Shown here piece after piece: positions 8,654 to 44,682 of a stretch of DNA of 60,198 nt. The translations under genes and the position numbers were made by a program. Origin of the DNA: a phage. Position 1 is the first letter of the stretch; each line of letters opens with the position of its first letter. The stretch lies in the NCBI GenBank assembly GCA_018175315.1, contig GCA_018175315.1_4769.1. The stretch is one strand, 5' to 3'. A model generated the notes under the pieces. It did not search any database and was not told the origin of the DNA. It saw only the letters and a list, made by a program, of their open reading frames with translations.

Positions 8654-9112
8654 ATGCCAAGGGTCTATACTAAAAAGCCGATGTCCGAAAGACTAAGCAA
8701 ATACGTTATAGACCCTTCTACTGGTTGCTGGAACTGGACTGGTAGTAAGGATAAAGACGGTTACGGTAGAATGATTAGTGGTTCCAAAGGTGAACGAATT
8801 TTTAGTTTTGCGCATCGCGAGAGCTATAAACTGTACAAAGGAGAAATTGGTTTACCTGATTCCGCTACAGGGTGCGTTCTGCATACATGTGATAATCCGT
8901 CTTGCATTAACCCAGATCATTTATATTTAGGAGATCAAAAACAAAACGGGTTGGATAAGAAAGTTAGAGGGAGGGCAAGGACACGTCCACGGTTTGGGAA
9001 AGATAACCCAATGTATCAAAAATATGGTGAACTGAATCCAATGTACGGGAAACATCATACAGAGGAAACCAAACGTAAAATTAGCGAAACTAAGAAAGCT
9101 AATTTTAAATAA
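8654..9112 (+). CDS. HNH homing endonuclease
   Basis: HNH_3-type pattern (GCWNWTGSKDKDGYGRM ... HRESYKLYKG ... CDNPSCINPDHLYLGDQKQN); inserted between folE and dpdA. Confidence 0.7.
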   Translation: MPRVYTKKPMSERLSKYVIDPSTGCWNWTGSKDKDGYGRMISGSKGERIFSFAHRESYKLYKGEIGLPDSATGCVLHTCDNPSCINPDHLYLGDQKQNGLDKKVRGRARTRPRFGKDNPMYQKYGELNPMYGKHHTEETKRKISETKKANFK

Positions 9113-9130
9113 TAGATAGCTTTACAGATC

Positions 9131-9166
9131 AAGCCCATATCGGTCATAATACTGGTATGGGCTTTT
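9131..9166 (+). terminator. terminator-like hairpin with T-run (weak)
   Basis: AAGCCCATA ... TATGGGCTT with 16-nt loop followed by TTTTT, between HNH and dpdA. Confidence 0.3.
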
Positions 9167-9191
9167 TAGTCATTGGAGGTTTATTTAAGAT

Positions 9192-10112
9192 ATGAATGTA
9201 TTCATGGCGGCTGTGTATACTAACGGCTATATGCCTGGCCAGCAGCGTTATGAAAAGCTGTCTGAGCATGAGAAAAATATCACGCGCAATCTGCCCCATA
9301 TTTTGGAATCATACCACTACGTTGGGCGTCAGAAGTATGTTGATCAGATGCGTGCGGACGGGGCTAAAGTGTTTCTCGACTCCGGTGCATTCTCCGCGCA
9401 CTCGTTAGGTGCTCACATTGATATTGTTGAATACTGCGAATACATTAAGCGTAACAAAGACATCCTTCGCGTAGAAGATGGTGCGGTGATGGCATCGGTG
9501 CTCGATGGTATCGGTGATCCGCTACAAACCTACCGTAACCAGCTTGAAATGGAAGCACGCGGTGCTAAACCGTTACCTTGCTTTCACTTTGGGGAGGACT
9601 TCCGCTATCTTGAATACTACATGAAGAACTACGAATATATCACCATTGGGGGTATGGTAGGGCGTTCCACGGACACGCTTAAGACTTGGCTTGACCGCAT
9701 GTGGGACAAATATATTTGCGACGGTAGCGGACGTGCTAAGATTAAACTTCATGCGTTTGGTATTACGTCCACAACCATTATGGAGCGTTATCCGTGGTAT
9801 AGCTGCGACTCATCCTCCTGGATACAAGCGGCAGCGTTTGGAAGTGTGGTTACTCCTCCGTGGGGCCCAATGCGCGTATCCGATAAGTCACCGGACCGCC
9901 ATCATTTTGGTAAGCATGTTTCAACGTTAACTGAAATTGAACAAGACGCTGTCCTTAAATACCTTGAGCAAAACGGTTTCACTTACGAACGTTTATCAAC
10001 AATTTATGAATCACGTGCTGCCTTCAATTTATGGGCTTATGGTGTAATTGCTGCAAACATTAACGCTACCCATGACGGCACATTCCGTGATCGTGTAATG
10101 GAGTTGTTCTGA
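9192..10112 (+). CDS. dpdA: DpdA-like 7-deazaguanine DNA transglycosylase (TGT superfamily)
   Basis: TGT-like motifs (FLDSGAFS, LHAFG, YSCDSSSW); adjacent to the preQ0 biosynthesis genes. Confidence 0.8.
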   Translation: MNVFMAAVYTNGYMPGQQRYEKLSEHEKNITRNLPHILESYHYVGRQKYVDQMRADGAKVFLDSGAFSAHSLGAHIDIVEYCEYIKRNKDILRVEDGAVMASVLDGIGDPLQTYRNQLEMEARGAKPLPCFHFGEDFRYLEYYMKNYEYITIGGMVGRSTDTLKTWLDRMWDKYICDGSGRAKIKLHAFGITSTTIMERYPWYSCDSSSWIQAAAFGSVVTPPWGPMRVSDKSPDRHHFGKHVSTLTEIEQDAVLKYLEQNGFTYERLSTIYESRAAFNLWAYGVIAANINATHDGTFRDRVMELF

Positions 10113-33514: not shown

Positions 33515-34168
33515 TTAACCTCGACGCATCATATTACGTGCAACCATACGGGCAACCGGATCGTCAATAGGGTTCTGGAAGCGATGGTCAGAAAGCATGT
33601 CTTCAGGTTTACGTTTTTTCTGCGCTTCAAGATACATCTGAGTTGCAGTAAGACCGGACTTAGGACGACGACGCTCCTGCTCAACGATAATCTTATCCAG
33701 ATCCGATTGAACGTCTGCAATAGCAAGCTCCAGCGCGTGCTTGGTGTCAGCAATCTCTTTAACCACATTGCTGAGCTTTTCGCTCTTCACTTTTAGCTCT
33801 TCATCGCTTAGGCTGGAAGTGTCACCGATTTTTTCCGGCTCCAGAAGAGCACGCAGTGCTTCGCTAATCTTAACTTCGATTTGCATCGTTGCAACCGCGA
33901 CTTTCTTTTCTTCTTCATGAGCTTTCTCCTGTTTGACAGCTTCATGTAAAACTGGATCAGCGGATTTAACAGGTTCCACTGGCTCTGGCTCTTCCAGCAC
34001 GCGGTTATCGCGGGTGAACAGCGGAGCAGCAGTTGTAATATCGTCGCGGGTTAAAGACGGGTTAGCGGTAGCGAAACGCAGAGCGTCAACTTTAGGTAAG
34101 CCATCGCTGGTCCAATGATTCGGGTTTTCCGGATCAAGTTCTAATAGTGCTTCAATTAATGTCTTCAT
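33515..34168 (-). CDS. hypothetical acidic coiled-coil protein
   Basis: 217 aa, Glu/Lys-rich central helix. Confidence 0.4.
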   Translation of the reverse strand: MKTLIEALLELDPENPNHWTSDGLPKVDALRFATANPSLTRDDITTAAPLFTRDNRVLEEPEPVEPVKSADPVLHEAVKQEKAHEEEKKVAVATMQIEVKISEALRALLEPEKIGDTSSLSDEELKVKSEKLSNVVKEIADTKHALELAIADVQSDLDKIIVEQERRRPKSGLTATQMYLEAQKKRKPEDMLSDHRFQNPIDDPVARMVARNMMRRG

Positions 34169-34185
34169 TGTTTAATCCTTATTTT

Positions 34186-34509
34186 TTAGGTCACATTAAT
34201 AACGCATGTACCAGTAACACTATCCTTTGCCTTGGACTTCACTGTCAAGTTTGAAGTACCACTGCTTGCAGTTGTGGTCACGGTAATTGTACCGTCCCCG
34301 TTGTCTTTAATTGTAGCAGAGGAACCGTCAACTGACGCGCTATACGCTTTGTTTGTAGTTCCGCCTGGGACAAAGTTTATTTTAACAGTAACCGTTTTTA
34401 CTTCTGAAGTTGTGGTGTCAATCGTAGCAGGATCGAGAGTAATCGAAATTGGCTCCACCTGCAACGATTTTTCCATCAAGTCATGTCGTTCATAACGTTG
34501 ATAACGCAT
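34186..34509 (-). CDS. Ig-like domain protein (probable head decoration)
   Basis: AGGAGAA RBS; Thr/Ser/Val-rich beta pattern (TVTVKINFVPGG...TITVTTTASSGTSNLTVKSKA); directly downstream of major capsid gene. Confidence 0.5.
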   Translation of the reverse strand: MRYQRYERHDLMEKSLQVEPISITLDPATIDTTTSEVKTVTVKINFVPGGTTNKAYSASVDGSSATIKDNGDGTITVTTTASSGTSNLTVKSKAKDSVTGTCVINVT

Positions 34510-34520
34510 GGTTGTTCTCC

Positions 34521-34555
34521 TAAAAAAGAGGGGACATAAATGTCCCCAAAATACT
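34521..34555 (-). terminator. rho-independent terminator after major capsid gene
   Basis: Perfect palindrome GGGGACAT-AA-ATGTCCCC; minus strand reads hairpin then CTCTTTTTT. Confidence 0.6.
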
Positions 34556-34578
34556 ACAGCGCGGCGTTGAGTGAAGCC

Positions 34579-35640
34579 TTAGGAACCCTGATACTCACGA
34601 GTAATCAGGCGAGCAACTTTAAGCTGCTTGCGCTCAGGGAACGCACGACGCCAGGAATCTGCATGGGCCAGGTTGTTAGTAGTTGCAGCGTTAGACGGAC
34701 CACCTTTAGCAGTTTGAGCAGCAGCCCAAGCATGACCGACTGGATGCAGAATCCATTCAACACGGTTGTGAAGAACTTCTTCACCAGCGCCATTGTTAGC
34801 AGCTTCGTCACGAACAACCGCAGTCGGTACTTTCGGTGAACCAGCACCCATTGCAGTTGCGCCCGGACCGAACAGCCAGCTTTCAAACACACCAGTAGTC
34901 GGATCGTGCGGCATGGAGTCGTCTTCAATAATACGCAGACCCTGATAATACTCAAACTGAGTTTCACCGCGAGCATCTGGAATGAAGTCGATCAGGTTCA
35001 ACTGACGCATACGGTTACGAACGGTAGAGTGTACCATAATCATAGTCAGATTGCGGGCAGCATCACCCATCGTTGCAGTTGCGTTGATGAAGTTAGACGC
35101 GGTAAAGTTGGTCTGGTTATTTACAAAAGAAGAACCAGAGATGTCGAAAGTTAAATCGTCGTTATGAGATTTCTTCGCATTAGCAAATACACCTTTCCAG
35201 GTTGCGATGTATGCAGCTTGCAGACGGCGAACCCACCACGCAGACACGCGGTTGCCGATAGCGGTCATTGGGTCGTTACCGATCAAAGCTGATACCAGAT
35301 CCGCAGAACCCCAGGATTTCGAACGGCTCATACGAACCTGAACTTCAGATCCGGTAGTGATGTTTGACGGTTTGGACGGATTACCTTTATCGACCGCGAT
35401 ATCTTCGTCTTCATCTTTCAGGTCGTTATAGAACGGCTCGTTAAAAGTCAGACCTGCACCAGCAAGGTTAGCAGATAAACGCTCGTCCATTACAACCGCA
35501 CCGGATTGGATCAGAGCAGAAAGTTCAGCGGTCTGCGTCTGCACATAACCAGTGAAGATCTCAGGGACAATGACATCCTTCAAACGAGTCAGGTCAGTTT
35601 CACCACGACCAAATGGTAGAATAATTTTAGATTTAGACAT
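34579..35640 (-). CDS. major capsid protein
   Basis: 353 aa, strong RBS, followed by strong terminator; position after scaffold gene. Confidence 0.75.
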   Translation of the reverse strand: MSKSKIILPFGRGETDLTRLKDVIVPEIFTGYVQTQTAELSALIQSGAVVMDERLSANLAGAGLTFNEPFYNDLKDEDEDIAVDKGNPSKPSNITTGSEVQVRMSRSKSWGSADLVSALIGNDPMTAIGNRVSAWWVRRLQAAYIATWKGVFANAKKSHNDDLTFDISGSSFVNNQTNFTASNFINATATMGDAARNLTMIMVHSTVRNRMRQLNLIDFIPDARGETQFEYYQGLRIIEDDSMPHDPTTGVFESWLFGPGATAMGAGSPKVPTAVVRDEAANNGAGEEVLHNRVEWILHPVGHAWAAAQTAKGGPSNAATTNNLAHADSWRRAFPERKQLKVARLITREYQGS

Positions 35641-35762
35641 ACTTGTCTCCAGGAAAAGGATTGATTTGTTTACTGTTGGTAGCCTTTCCCCGTGGAAGGC
35701 TGTTTAGGAACCCGTGTCCCTGATGTGTTGAAACTTAACATCAGGGACGTCGGGATGTCAAC

Positions 35763-36635
35763 TTATTTCTTAGCAGGACGTACAGGCTTCAGCGGATCTA
35801 CGCCATTCTTTTCAGCTAAGCGTTTAGCTAAAGATTGATTAGTTTTCCAGAGATTCATTTGCTTAGAAATGTTCCAGCCGTCGTGACTGTATGGGTCTTC
35901 ACCGTGATGGCCACCAGCGCCCGGACCAGATGCACCGCCACCAGCAGATCCTTCAACCCAGTGCGGACGCTTCGGAAGGATTTCGTTCAGCCAGTCCGCC
36001 GGAGTCAGGTAAGGAGTTACACCAGCCCCATCTTTCGTAACCACATTACCGTTCTCATCGACGGTCATTTGCAACTGTGCATAAGTTACAGCGTCTTCAA
36101 TAGCAGACGGACGCAATTTAGCACCAGAAGCAGCGGCAATAACTGCATCTTTAATCTTCGCTTTAGTTTCGCGAGCGCGGTAGCCTTCAATTTCCTGCTT
36201 AACCGTGTCACGCTCGGTGATAACAGTTTGCAATTGGCGCTCAAGCGGAGCAAGACGGGCTTTGACCATCTTCTCAATGTCTTCCGGATTGCCTTTACCG
36301 CTAGCAGCAGCTTCCAGCTCAGGAATACGATCCAAATCCGCCAGGACTTCTTCAACCGGACGCCCCAGTGCGCTAATTTGTTGTTTCACCTGACGATGAT
36401 CGTTACGCTCTTTTGCTAACGCACTTTCCAGACGACGAACGCTATCAGCAGGTGCTACACCTTTGACTTTTGCAAGAACGTATTTACCACCCTGCTCTGC
36501 GTAAAGAGTTGCAAATTCCGCCGGGATTTCTTCCGCAGATGCATACTCGTATTGCAATTCCACATCACCTTCACCGCGAGCGCGTGGATTAATTAGAGCA
36601 AGACCAACACTAATAGCTACAGAACTCTTTTGCAT
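35763..36635 (-). CDS. scaffolding protein
   Basis: 290 aa, long charged coiled-coil region; located between portal and major capsid genes. Confidence 0.5.
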   Translation of the reverse strand: MQKSSVAISVGLALINPRARGEGDVELQYEYASAEEIPAEFATLYAEQGGKYVLAKVKGVAPADSVRRLESALAKERNDHRQVKQQISALGRPVEEVLADLDRIPELEAAASGKGNPEDIEKMVKARLAPLERQLQTVITERDTVKQEIEGYRARETKAKIKDAVIAAASGAKLRPSAIEDAVTYAQLQMTVDENGNVVTKDGAGVTPYLTPADWLNEILPKRPHWVEGSAGGGASGPGAGGHHGEDPYSHDGWNISKQMNLWKTNQSLAKRLAEKNGVDPLKPVRPAKK

Positions 36636-36730
36636 TTCTTATCTCCGTTGTCACCCGTGTGACGTTTTTGGGGCTGAGCCGTCCCAGCCCCGTGTTCGTT
36701 AATATAAACCAATCAATTTGGAAGTTGCAA

Positions 36731-38227
36731 CTATTCTTTATCGGAAGCGTCGTCTTCCTTAGGATCTTTGTTTACTTGCTGCTCTGCGTTTAAATCAGCC
36801 TTAGCATCATCGGGCAGAGGCCACTTCTTAAGCTCTTCCTCAAGAATTGCCATTTCTTCTTCAAAGCTCAATGTGGTTAAACCCTGATCCACAAGCCAGC
36901 CATGAATAGACTGCAAGCTGATCGGAGCCTTAAGGTTGCGTGCAGTAATAATTTGAACAAAGTCCTGACCGTTAAACATGCTCTTGGTAAATTCAAGATT
37001 AGGCTTAACCACAACTTTCTCTGGATCAGCACCCATCCATTTAGCGCAAACCTTCAGCAAGTTTTCCAAACCTGCCGCACCAGTATACGCAATTCGAATC
37101 AGGCTAGCTGTACGCGCAGCAATACGCGTTTTCATAGCTTCGCCTGATTCCTGCGTGCTCTTGGTGTTGTTTACCATTTGCCCGGCTTTAATCTGGGCTT
37201 CTTGCTTATCCGCTGCTAGTGCAAGACGTTGCTCGGACAAACCGTCACCGCTAACGCCTACATATTTAGCGTCACCCCCAATAGCAACGTTAATGACCGC
37301 TCCAGGACCGATGCGCTGAGGGGCTTTATCTCCATTCTCCCCCGTGCCACCAACAACAACTAATGTGTCCTGACCCTGCATATGCAGGCTCTGACGGTAA
37401 TCAGCGTCACTTCGGTACATGCTTAGGCAGATGTTAGCTAGCCCCAACAATGGAGGCGCTTCCGGTGCTGGGGTGATATCTGTTGTATTAACAAACTGGA
37501 AAGGTATTTCGTCCAGTTTGTTACCTTTATAATAAGGAGCAATCATTTGCCCTTCATCATAATTGGTATTGTTGATAAATAAATGCTGGGAGTAGACCGC
37601 CCCACCTGCAACTTCATCTGTGTCCATCGGACCTAATTGCAAGACACGATAACGCTTCTCTTCTTTCCAGTCAAACTGATTGACACGTACAGGCCCGCTT
37701 TCATCCAGAACAACCATGTTCAAGTTGATATTGCCTAATTCATCTTTACCATCATCCCAGTTGATAATGGATAAAGCATCATAAACGCTAATATACGGTC
37801 TGTTATTTACATCCTCACCTTTTGGCAAGTCCAGCAGCAGACCCAAACGTCCATTTTTTAACTGCATTTCGTTGATGCGACGTAGCAGAGCAATAATGTC
37901 TTCACCATCCGCAGTACACAGCTCCCGCATGTACTCCATTTCAGGAGGAAGCTGGATTGTAGGCGGCTTCTGGTGCAACAGACCTAAATTATTTGTGACA
38001 GCACTTGAATAATCGTCAGGGAAGTTAGCACGCAGACGATAAGCGAGCCAACGTTGAAAGCCTAAATCATTAGGATTATTCATCCCATCAATAATCATGG
38101 AAGCTAAAGGTGGTAGATATTTAACACCTTCTTCCTTAATTTTATCTTCACCCTCATAGCAGTCGTTGCACTTAACCCATGCATCCTTCCACTTGTCATA
38201 TAGCGGGTGAGTTGCATCAATACCCAT
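36731..38227 (-). CDS. portal protein
   Basis: 498 aa immediately downstream of terminase large subunit. Confidence 0.7.
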   Translation of the reverse strand: MGIDATHPLYDKWKDAWVKCNDCYEGEDKIKEEGVKYLPPLASMIIDGMNNPNDLGFQRWLAYRLRANFPDDYSSAVTNNLGLLHQKPPTIQLPPEMEYMRELCTADGEDIIALLRRINEMQLKNGRLGLLLDLPKGEDVNNRPYISVYDALSIINWDDGKDELGNINLNMVVLDESGPVRVNQFDWKEEKRYRVLQLGPMDTDEVAGGAVYSQHLFINNTNYDEGQMIAPYYKGNKLDEIPFQFVNTTDITPAPEAPPLLGLANICLSMYRSDADYRQSLHMQGQDTLVVVGGTGENGDKAPQRIGPGAVINVAIGGDAKYVGVSGDGLSEQRLALAADKQEAQIKAGQMVNNTKSTQESGEAMKTRIAARTASLIRIAYTGAAGLENLLKVCAKWMGADPEKVVVKPNLEFTKSMFNGQDFVQIITARNLKAPISLQSIHGWLVDQGLTTLSFEEEMAILEEELKKWPLPDDAKADLNAEQQVNKDPKEDDASDKE

Positions 38228-41318: not shown

Positions 41319-41354
41319 GTTCCCTCCAAATAAAAGGGGCTAACGCCCCGTCAG

Positions 41355-41792
41355 TTAAAGTACCATTGCAATAGCGCGGTTAATTACGTCGTCGGTATAG
41401 GGCATCATGCCATTTTCATGACGAATGATTGCTTTCACCAATCCTGACATAATTGCCTTGTCGAAGACATTAATTGGATCGTTAGGTTGAACACCAATTG
41501 CTTTGGCAACAGAGCGAATATACGCTTCCGTATCGTTTTCGTTAGGCGGAGCCCAGCGAGCGATAATTTCACGTACAGTGTCGATGTTTTTCTTACCCAC
41601 ATTGGGCAAGCCTTCACGTTTGGTGTAGTTTGTCAGGATTTTCGCTAGTGCACGAATGCCGTAAATCGGTTGCGTAAATTGAGCAAAAGATTTATCGGTT
41701 CTCTTATCAGCAGGAACTAAGCCCTGCCAATTATCACCCCAGCGAATATTGCCTGGATTGTTATTACGAATACCACGAGGTTGAAGTGCCAT
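41355..41792 (-). CDS. putative endolysin (by lysis-cassette position)
   Basis: GGAGGAGG RBS before ATG 41792 (ORF track's longer ORF lacks an RBS); motif RGIRNNNPGNIRWG; immediately upstream of holin. Confidence 0.4.
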   Translation of the reverse strand: MALQPRGIRNNNPGNIRWGDNWQGLVPADKRTDKSFAQFTQPIYGIRALAKILTNYTKREGLPNVGKKNIDTVREIIARWAPPNENDTEAYIRSVAKAIGVQPNDPINVFDKAIMSGLVKAIIRHENGMMPYTDDVINRAIAMVL

Positions 41793-41877: not shown

Positions 41878-42138
41878 TTACCCGTCAAACCAGTCGTTAA
41901 TGTAGAAAGCAACAAGACTTTTTCCACCTTTATCGACCCCGTAGCTGGAGTAAAAAGTGAAGTTATCTGGTTCGTGTTGCAGGATAACCATAAAGTCATG
42001 CTGAGCGCTGTCAATAATTGCAATGGCGATTTCCTCGTTATCTGTGATAAAGATTTCGCCACCAATTACAACATGCGTCCCGTGGTCAACTACCTTACTA
42101 TGATAAGCAGGTGGGATCAGGTGACTGAATGTAGTCAT
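41878..42138 (-). CDS. hypothetical protein
   Basis: 86 aa, GAGGG RBS. Confidence 0.45.
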   Translation of the reverse strand: MTTFSHLIPPAYHSKVVDHGTHVVIGGEIFITDNEEIAIAIIDSAQHDFMVILQHEPDNFTFYSSYGVDKGGKSLVAFYINDWFDG

Positions 42139-42603
42139 TTAAAAACCCTCAAATGATATTGTATCAACTCCCAGGAATGCACATGTGGTGTGTTTAATTG
42201 CTAACTCAATAGCTTCGCTCGCACTTGCACCAGCAGCTAACGCGCCAGCAGCAAACACACAACCGCTACCCTCAGATCCCCATCCATCCAGCATGGGTTC
42301 ACTCAAAGTACCATCATTATAAATAAAATGGCAAGTACCTTCCGGAGTGACAGCAAGACCGCAAGTTTGCCCGTAATCATCATCTTTACTGTAAAGTTTA
42401 ATATCAGGGAACTTAACAGGTTCCGCGCTATTAAAATAACGCAACACCTGATCGGTAAATGCTGTAAGGCCGCACAAGCCCAGTAAAAACCGTCCACGAT
42501 GTCCATTTACGCTATGAACTTTCTTATAAGCAGTCACAGCTTCCCCGCGCATAACTCCACGGTCCGCAGCTAATACTTTTCCATCGAACGCAATTGTGGT
42601 CAT
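42139..42603 (-). CDS. HslV-like / proteasome beta-type Ntn-hydrolase peptidase
   Basis: N-terminus MTTIAFDGKVLAADRG (Thr directly after Met) and GSEGSGCVFAAGALAAGASASEAIELAI parallel E. coli HslV; AAGGAAAG RBS. Confidence 0.55.
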   Translation of the reverse strand: MTTIAFDGKVLAADRGVMRGEAVTAYKKVHSVNGHRGRFLLGLCGLTAFTDQVLRYFNSAEPVKFPDIKLYSKDDDYGQTCGLAVTPEGTCHFIYNDGTLSEPMLDGWGSEGSGCVFAAGALAAGASASEAIELAIKHTTCAFLGVDTISFEGF

Positions 42604-42785
42604 TTAACTTTCCTTTGGTCTTGGATAATAACAATACATAAAACAAATAGAATAAGACAGATGCAAAGCCCTGTACTTGCAAAGATTCGGATAACCGTGG
42701 AAGGTTGTTCGACTACTGTATAGGTATAAAGCCCAGCGAACATTAACGTCGCAAATAAAAACAATCCGGCGTATAGTTTGGTCAT
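42600..42785 (-). CDS. small membrane protein
   Basis: 61 aa, two hydrophobic segments, AGAGGGG RBS. Confidence 0.4.
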   Translation of the reverse strand: MTKLYAGLFLFATLMFAGLYTYTVVEQPSTVIRIFASTGLCICLILFVLCIVIIQDQRKVK

Positions 42786-42847: not shown

Positions 42848-43270
42848 TTAATAAGGCAGGATTTCAACGTCTTTGACCCAAGTGTGAATGATAAAAGCTC
42901 CAGGCTCTTCAGGATCTTGATCCGGACCAACATAGAACTTTTTACCTTCCCATCCTTTAATTGGATCATGCACAATAAACTTGTGATCTGTCATATCAAT
43001 CACAATCTGGTGCAATGCGCCAGGAATATTAAGACTTGGCACCGTGCACAGGAACAGACCTCCCATATGCAAAGTTTCACGCCCACCACCTTCTGAACAA
43101 TGATGCTGGACGCCGTTTTTAGTCAAATATTCGCTGATAGTAATTTCCCAGTTGTTATAATAACGACTATGAAATTCCTCAATCACCTTTTCAACAGGTT
43201 TATTAAGGATCATTGCTAGACACGCAGAAACGCATGTATTCAATGTTGGTTGCTTGACGTGTTTAATCAT
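42848..43270 (-). CDS. papain-like cysteine peptidase (C39-like domain)
   Basis: Q-x5-C-x2-A-x-LAMIL pattern (QPTLNTCVSACLAMIL) with downstream His (IVHDP); GAGG RBS. Confidence 0.5.
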   Translation of the reverse strand: MIKHVKQPTLNTCVSACLAMILNKPVEKVIEEFHSRYYNNWEITISEYLTKNGVQHHCSEGGGRETLHMGGLFLCTVPSLNIPGALHQIVIDMTDHKFIVHDPIKGWEGKKFYVGPDQDPEEPGAFIIHTWVKDVEILPY

Positions 43271-44265: not shown

Positions 44266-44316
44266 AACAGCCTCCAGATAATTAAGGGCTCCGTAGAGCC
44301 CATTATAGATTGATAA

Positions 44317-44682
44317 TTATACTTGTCCTATATTTTTCTGCCATTCACGAACAGTTTCTAGCATAGATTTATAATCGTCATCCCAATCATAATTCTCAAC
44401 ATCCTTTTGAAGTTTGGCAATCATTTCTTCAAAGCTGTTAGCTGGTAAGTAACTTTCACCAAATTCAGCAAGACGTTTCTGATAATCGGGACTTTCCTCA
44501 TCATCCCAGCCAAATTCAGCTTGAAATGAATCGCAACCAGAGCATGATCCATAAGACCCTTCGCAAACTCCCAATACACCATCTTTTCTTATCAGGGCAA
44601 GCCATTCACCCTGATAACAACCAAACTCAACAAAATCTAATACTTCGCATCCAGCAGCTTCTAATGCTAATTGGTAAGACAT
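44317..44682 (-). CDS. hypothetical Cys-containing acidic protein
   Basis: 121 aa with GSYGSCSGCDSF. Confidence 0.45.
   Translation of the reverse strand: MSYQLALEAAGCEVLDFVEFGCYQGEWLALIRKDGVLGVCEGSYGSCSGCDSFQAEFGWDDEESPDYQKRLAEFGESYLPANSFEEMIAKLQKDVENYDWDDDYKSMLETVREWQKNIGQV

Follow-up and report, generated by a model that had tools for sequence, protein, structure and literature searches.

The gene at 42139..42603 (minus strand) of the window, by which we mean the whole 60,198-nucleotide stretch of phage DNA that was analysed, belongs to the PPH family of proteasome homologs. PPH is the right label for this coliphage protein, as judged by the published features of the family, which were read from its sequence and from a structural model. 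We consider it somewhat probable (roughly 55%) that its product functions as an N-terminal-threonine peptidase that is catalytically competent and stands alone, and that it is produced along with the lysis and packaging genes. Public records already contain both the protein and its assignment to the family, and no new entity is described here. The value of the gene lies in its being a member of an uncharacterised, very large enzyme family in a genetically tractable K-12 phage. The copy studied here is that of a Seuratvirus growing on E. coli K-12, and several Seuratvirus are in the BASEL collection, where a homolog is present in phage KurtStettler as bas22_0090, so that its role is directly testable genetically.

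The gene and its close relatives

The open reading frame comprises 154 codons from ATG to TAA and specifies a product of 154 aa. The translation reads MTTIAFDGKVLAADRG...GSEGSGCVFAAGALAAGA...SFEGF, with the N-terminus MTTIAFDGK. The gene and the elements next to it are the following:

42139..42603, minus strand: CDS of the 154-aa PPH-family protein, a predicted proteasome/HslV-like N-terminal-threonine hydrolase; the product is identical to Seurat gp84 / CAjan gp86
42611..42614, minus strand: Shine-Dalgarno sequence AGGA, read from the sequence, 7 nt 5' of the ATG; a ribosome_binding_site is annotated at the same position in phage Seurat
42600..42785, minus strand: upstream gene for a 61-aa predicted membrane protein, phrog_22841; its stop overlaps the PPH start (ATGA)
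41878..42138, minus strand: downstream gene for an 86-aa protein, phrog_23528; its ATG adjoins the PPH stop codon TAA

This is a real gene, translationally coupled to its neighbours, and not a chance ORF. More than 20 sequenced phages encode a protein with 100% identity to this one, even though the DNA of the gene diverges by up to ~5%, and comparisons with Seurat, OddieOddie, CSP1 and ECP2304 gave a dN/dS of 0.01-0.03 at dS 0.14-0.60 (Nei-Gojobori). It follows from both observations that the gene is translated and under strong purifying selection. Its G+C content of 45.2% is also in keeping with the 44.4% of the window.

The window is ~96% identical to Escherichia phages CAjan, Seurat and other Seuratvirus (subfamily Queuovirinae), and with 60.2 kb it amounts to an essentially complete Seuratvirus genome. 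The PPH gene has been labelled 'putative protease' or 'hypothetical protein' by GenBank submitters and 'peptidase HslV family' in RefSeq. Close Seuratvirus relatives are also annotated with a 7-deazaguanine (queuosine-type) pathway represented by FolE, QueC, QueD, QueE and a queuine tRNA-ribosyltransferase-like gene. A comparative-genomics paper on Seuratvirus and two papers on the related deazaguanine-modifying phages Vid5 and EC151 are silent on the PPH gene. More generally, no biochemical or genetic work on any PPH member was found in the searchable literature, which holds a single bioinformatic paper of 2021 and routine annotations; where HslV is mentioned in three further papers, the reference is to host HslVU or to an unrelated jumbo-phage protein.

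A gene annotated 'peptidase HslV family' occurs in SPN3US-like jumbo phages as well. Positions 1186-1227 of Salmonella phage SPN3US match window positions 42562-42603 (minus strand) with 90.5% identity over the first 42 nt. This identity at the 5' end probably reflects the extremely conserved N-terminus MTTIA.DGK.LAAD.

Fold, active site and missing helix H2

Searches with the single PPH sequence were weak and a family profile was required. The Pfam model Proteasome (PF00227) gave 15.4 bits (E = 0.015) for residues 7-58 only, which is below its gathering threshold of 22.4 bits. A phmmer search of PDB with the single sequence returned only a spurious S-layer match, and a single-sequence search of NCBIfam returned nothing relevant. 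PHROG 1040, 'peptidase HslV family', matched residues 1-152 with E = 5.4e-32. When a family profile composed of the query and 17 relatives (down to 30% identity) was compared with PDB, it matched BPH and numerous 20S beta chains besides HslV (best E = 3.2e-8), and hhalign of the PPH profile with E. coli HslV gave a probability of 93.9%. An AF2 model built on the same 18-sequence alignment had a mean pLDDT of 94.9 and a pTM of 0.89; in a Foldseek search of PDB its top matches were all HslV, BPH or 20S beta. At the level of profile and modelled fold the homology to the proteasome family is significant despite the sub-threshold Pfam score, and the protein is predicted to adopt the proteasome/HslV Ntn sandwich fold.

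An HslV-like or proteasome beta-type Ntn-hydrolase with Thr directly after Met in a product of 154 aa had been proposed in the first-pass annotation of this DNA. The Thr2 codon (42598-42600) indeed adjoins the Met1 codon (42601-42603), and the hhalign probability, the conserved catalytic residues and the predicted fold all support the proposed class; AF2 and Foldseek pointed to the proteasome/HslV Ntn fold and to no non-Ntn fold.

Proteasome-fold proteins are widespread in phages. BFVD contributed 39 matches at E <= 1e-3, among which were proteins of jumbo phages, of Caulobacter phages and of Pseudomonas phage nickie. When 1.84 billion cluster representatives were searched exhaustively with the profile, 11,548 proteins were obtained at E <= 1e-3, almost all of them 140-150 aa long. 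At E <= 1e-10 there remained 8,075 PPH-like representatives, each standing for a cluster at 50% identity, which may be compared with the 324 nr90 sequences counted in 2021 (PMC8665760). The PPH family is therefore very large, and its active site is almost invariant.

Conservation was assessed in 236 distinct PPH relatives, composed of the best 150 representatives, earlier matches and 80 viral loci. The hhalign comparison with HslV placed the predicted active site as follows, with conservation among these relatives in brackets; the last line gives the segment that takes the place of a helix:

42598..42603, minus strand: codons of Met1-Thr2; Thr2 is the counterpart of HslV Thr1 and the predicted nucleophile after removal of the initiator Met (M1 98%, T2 96%, Ser 4%)
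42562..42564, minus strand: codon of Asp14, counterpart of proteasome/HslV Asp17 (100%)
42520..42522, minus strand: codon of Lys28, counterpart of Lys33 (100%)
42469..42471, minus strand: codon of Gly45, counterpart of the oxyanion-hole glycine, HslV Gly45 / 20S Gly47 (99%)
42262..42270, minus strand: codons of Gly112-Ser113-Gly114, counterpart of the HslV G-S124-G / 20S Ser129 loop at the start of helix H3 (100%, 80%, 100%)
42367..42429, minus strand: non-helical linker, residues 59-79, in place of helix H2 of HslV/20S beta, according to DSSP on the AF2 model and to hhalign gaps

Equivalents of HslV Thr1, Lys33 and the Ser/Gly loop had been named as the positions to look for, and Thr2, Lys28 and G112-S113-G114 align with them. 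The glycine-rich segment noticed earlier is also present, its G-S-G counterpart being G112-S113-G114 and not the first 'GS' of 'GSEGSG'. Position 2 is Thr or Ser in 100% of the 236 relatives. Because the match begins at residue 1-2 in 147 of the best 150 representatives, the PPH relatives appear to be made without a propeptide. Read from sequence, a fixed Met-Thr/Ser start, no propeptide and an invariant triad are the signature of a working N-terminal-nucleophile hydrolase.

Methionine aminopeptidase prefers small second residues, and E. coli HslV has the same MTT start; for these reasons Met1 would be cut off by the host enzyme. The freed amino group and the hydroxyl of Thr2 would then act as base and nucleophile, with Lys28 and Asp14 as proton relay. 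It might be argued that the proteasome fold has been kept for binding or structure, as in proteasome alpha subunits, and that the protein is a catalytically dead scaffold. Many proteasome-family members are non-catalytic (alpha subunits and some beta subunits), and no PPH activity has ever been reported. However, catalytic positions conserved at 96-100% (Ser113 80%) and an N-terminus fixed as Met-Thr/Ser are unexpected for a pseudo-enzyme, which makes this explanation highly improbable. What counts against a peptidase that stands alone is that subunits of the proteasome type mostly show no activity in isolation and gain it upon assembly (PMC8665760).

The modelled PPH protein departs from HslV in its helices. 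DSSP on the AF2 model assigned H1 to residues 47-58, between strands 37-43 and 80-85, and no second helix; pLDDT in this block was 94-98, and the hhalign gaps fall opposite H2 of HslV. The last secondary-structure element is a strand at 146-149, and a C-terminal S12/H5 is absent from the model. Moreover, the protein did not match the NCBIfam HslV equivalogs TIGR03692 and NF003964 at E <= 10, while the control, E. coli HslV, scored 288 and 304 bits. From the lack of an equivalog match and the absence of H2, both in sequence and in the model, it follows that the protein is not an HslV ortholog.

The loss of H2 bears on the question of a partner. In HslV the pocket between subunits that receives the C-terminal tail of HslU is formed by Phe54 and Phe57 (H1), Ala79/Lys80 (H2) and Gln114 (PMC6429459). 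Since H2 with Ala79/Lys80 is absent, part of this pocket would be missing in PPH. The phage does not appear to supply an unfoldase of its own. The earlier remark that no HslU-like AAA+ gene lies nearby holds for the whole 60-kb window, in which no HslU-like sequence was detected (tblastn with E. coli HslU, best E = 0.68; phmmer, none), and the annotated genomes of Seurat and CAjan list no AAA+ unfoldase. A Walker-A scan of the window found its clearest matches in the large terminase and in an ORF at ~58567, which corresponds by position to the Sak4-like gene of Seurat, and three weaker ones in other ORFs. The downstream 86-aa protein (41878-42138, minus strand) holds the Walker-A-like string GVDKGGKS, but its family annotation is phrog_23528 only and the string is probably due to chance.

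A host unfoldase could in principle be used instead, as the first-pass annotation had also suggested. HslV-like hexameric rings of PPH would dock on host HslU (or ClpX) to give a hybrid ATP-dependent protease aimed at substrates useful to the phage. The closest solved fold to PPH is still that of HslV, for which reason an altered mode of HslU docking may be envisaged. Against this, a loop replaces H2, the source of Ala79/Lys80 in the HslU-tail pocket (PMC6429459), the curated HslV equivalog models are unmatched and PPH is only ~20% identical to HslV. The authors who defined PPH likewise saw no co-occurring AAA+ protein, and they described its function as unknown as of 2021 (PMC8665760). Use of host HslU is therefore disfavoured, and we consider it unlikely. 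The stand-alone peptidase, by comparison, would cleave peptide bonds without a dedicated unfoldase, and with part of the HslU-tail pocket missing its action would be more like that of BPH than that of HslVU.

Genomic context and possible role

The PPH gene is located within a tightly packed run of minus-strand genes in the order 160-aa protein, 140-aa protein, 61-aa membrane protein, PPH, 86-aa protein, endolysin, holin, spanins, TerS, TerL, portal, scaffold and major head protein. Two parts of this run need to be located:

41355..41792, minus strand: endolysin, phrog_873, after the CAjan/Seurat annotation; the start ATG is that of the 145-aa product of CAjan
33515-38227, minus strand: head module with portal (phrog_145, DUF4055), scaffold (phrog_206) and major head protein (phrog_247)

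Judged from gene order only, PPH would be made late in infection, together with the lysis and packaging genes downstream, and it would then act on phage or host proteins. The operon that holds PPH begins ~5 kb upstream among many small genes, which are possibly early. Terminator-like hairpins are located at 41336-41349 (minus strand), after the endolysin, where one is also annotated in Seurat, and at 44286-44301 (minus strand), between genes for a 121-aa and a 100-aa protein. Together with a promoter-like site at 44302-44344 they may bound a transcription unit containing PPH and the endolysin; in promoter and terminator scans around PPH these signals were not above shuffled controls.

The 61-aa and 86-aa genes that flank PPH are Seuratvirus-specific. 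Two genes upstream of PPH lies the gene for the 140-aa protein (42848-43270, minus strand), a member of phrog_4049 that accompanies PPH in Seuratvirus only. With its N-terminal 'QPTLNTCVSAC' and later His/Asp residues the protein is reminiscent of a small papain/C39-like cysteine peptidase; its match to Pfam Peptidase_C39 (E = 0.05) is below threshold. If this peptidase were real, two predicted peptidases would stand in one operon.

PPH genes of other phages were surveyed in IMG/VR, which gave 144 matches. Genomic context was compared at 80 loci, which represent 64 lineages at 80% PPH identity; the proteins from the viral loci are 137-235 aa long with a median of 146 aa, so that the coliphage protein with its 154 aa is at the long end. 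A location 1-4 genes upstream of a lysis cassette and terminase was also found in Nonagvirus JenK1, Klebsiella phage vB_Kpn2-P2 and Providencia phage PSTCR7, but not in Ralstonia phage YL1. The idea of a conserved partner gene right next to PPH was rejected, since no single gene family accompanies PPH across the 64 lineages. The commonest annotated genes within two genes of PPH were those for TerL, TerS, portal, head-tail adaptors or connectors and neck proteins; NinB, RusA, HNH and methyltransferase genes were also among the neighbours. In iterative local searches TerL or portal was found no more than 1 kb from PPH in 22 of the 64 lineages, within 2 kb in 29/64 and within 8 kb in 44/64, more often downstream. 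A gene placed at random in a phage of 50 kb would be expected to lie within 1-2 kb in ~10-15% of cases, a figure that is a rough estimate and not a computed null. Across lineages PPH shows a tendency to lie within the packaging/head module or at its border. A defence or anti-defence role was also considered and rejected, because the PADLOC anti-phage defence models gave no match to the PPH protein at E <= 1.

Individual loci show how far into the structural genes PPH can be placed. In L018 (4358-6198) and L066 (3293-5118), two metagenomic viral lineages, a portal gene of the phrog_145 type ends in overlap with the start of PPH, and in L018 PPH precedes the scaffold and an ORF at 8671-9828 which, going by gene order, would encode the major head protein. 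This post-portal position in L018 is the slot usual for a prohead protease. In L075 (7486-8432) the overlap is between the start of PPH and the stop of the gene for the Ad1 head-tail adaptor, and a tail-terminator gene comes after PPH; here PPH is deep inside the structural operon and translationally coupled to Ad1. PPH comes after the major head protein gene in L049, and in prophage L008 it lies between TerL and the gene for an 893-aa protein. In the phage studied here, in L049 and in L075 there is a scaffold of phrog_206, and in none of the three could a prohead protease be recognised. A module with phrog_145 portal and phrog_206 scaffold was nevertheless near PPH in only ~10/64 lineages, for which reason one specific head type was rejected as a general partner of PPH.

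This pattern suggests a narrower version of the stand-alone peptidase, compatible with it, in which PPH serves morphogenesis by cleaving the scaffold, portal, major head or connector protein in place of a missing prohead protease. A recognisable prohead protease is absent from the portal/scaffold/major head module of the window (33515-38227), PPH lies inside the structural operon in other lineages (L018, L075, L049 and prophage L008), and TerL or portal is close to it in the 29 lineages mentioned. In the present phage, however, the lysis cassette and TerS separate PPH from the head module, and PPH as a family is not bound to one head type. In phages whose scaffolding protein is a separate one, a protease is often unnecessary. 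Unrelated accessory genes, moreover, are common at the boundary that precedes the packaging genes, and NinB, HNH and methyltransferase genes also occur next to PPH, which limits the positional support for a morphogenetic role. The searchable literature yielded no virion proteomics bearing on the matter. The position of the gene speaks to some extent for a link of PPH with the packaging and head genes, and processing of head proteins may be regarded as a possible, rather doubtful, special case.

More ambitiously, PPH might be seen as a new class of unfoldase-independent phage threonine protease whose conserved role is tied to packaging or head assembly in many unrelated tailed phages. Examples of such a role would be the maturation of portal, scaffold or connector in phages without a prohead protease, or the removal, timed to the beginning of packaging, of a protein of the host or the phage. 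If this were true PPH would be the first functional 'viral proteasome', but we hold this generalisation to be tentative, and improbable on present evidence.

Comparison with known systems

The reduced helix layer of PPH has a parallel in connectase, an archaeal proteasome-fold protein ligase in which the H1/H2 layer is also reduced (PMC8665760). PPH might not be a protease but a connectase-like sequence-specific protein ligase or transpeptidase, or an amidase acting on a cell-wall or small-molecule amide. We consider such an activity quite unlikely. Like docking on host HslU and like the dead scaffold, it is a less likely explanation than the stand-alone N-terminal-threonine peptidase.

With HslV (ClpQ) the PPH protein shares ~20% identity, the predicted N-terminal Thr nucleophile and the positions of Lys33, Asp17, Gly45 and Ser124. 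It differs in being ~22 residues shorter and in its apical helices, of which H1 and H2 form the HslU-tail pocket in HslV whereas the PPH model is without H2. HslV is co-encoded with its partner HslU, but no hslU adjoins the PPH gene. The 20S beta subunits (PF00227) have the fold and the catalytic triad in common with the predicted PPH protein; PPH differs from them in that it lacks a propeptide, an alpha-ring partner and H2. BPH (PDB 5ovs/5ovu) is a tetradecamer of subunits of ~185-200 aa with a long acidic pore loop and, unlike PPH, with both H1 and H2 (PMC5777263, PMC8665760).

The closest relationship is with PPH as published. Fuchs, Alva and Lupas described 22 new proteasome homologs in 2021, PPH among them, and placed it in group I together with HslV and BPH (PMC8665760). 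Their PPH is a protein of ~140 residues from Caudovirales and from prophages of Proteobacteria, without propeptide and without C-terminal S12/H5, and the lack of H2 is unique to PPH and its relative RPC (PMC8665760). The published representative WP_042125023.1 (KEGG OC.1434257) was not returned by a cluster look-up of ten family members; the comparison made here is with the published family features. The beta-sandwich core with Thr1/Ser1, Asp17, Lys33 and the oxyanion Gly is present in the coliphage protein, which is equally compact, with 154 aa, starts with MT and has neither propeptide nor S12/H5. H2 is missing also from its model. Relatives were found in Seuratvirus, Nonagvirus, Craquatrovirus, Ralstonia phages and prophage L008, in agreement with the tailed phages and prophages of Proteobacteria from which the family was described. 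In all these respects the coliphage protein and the published PPH family show no substantive difference.
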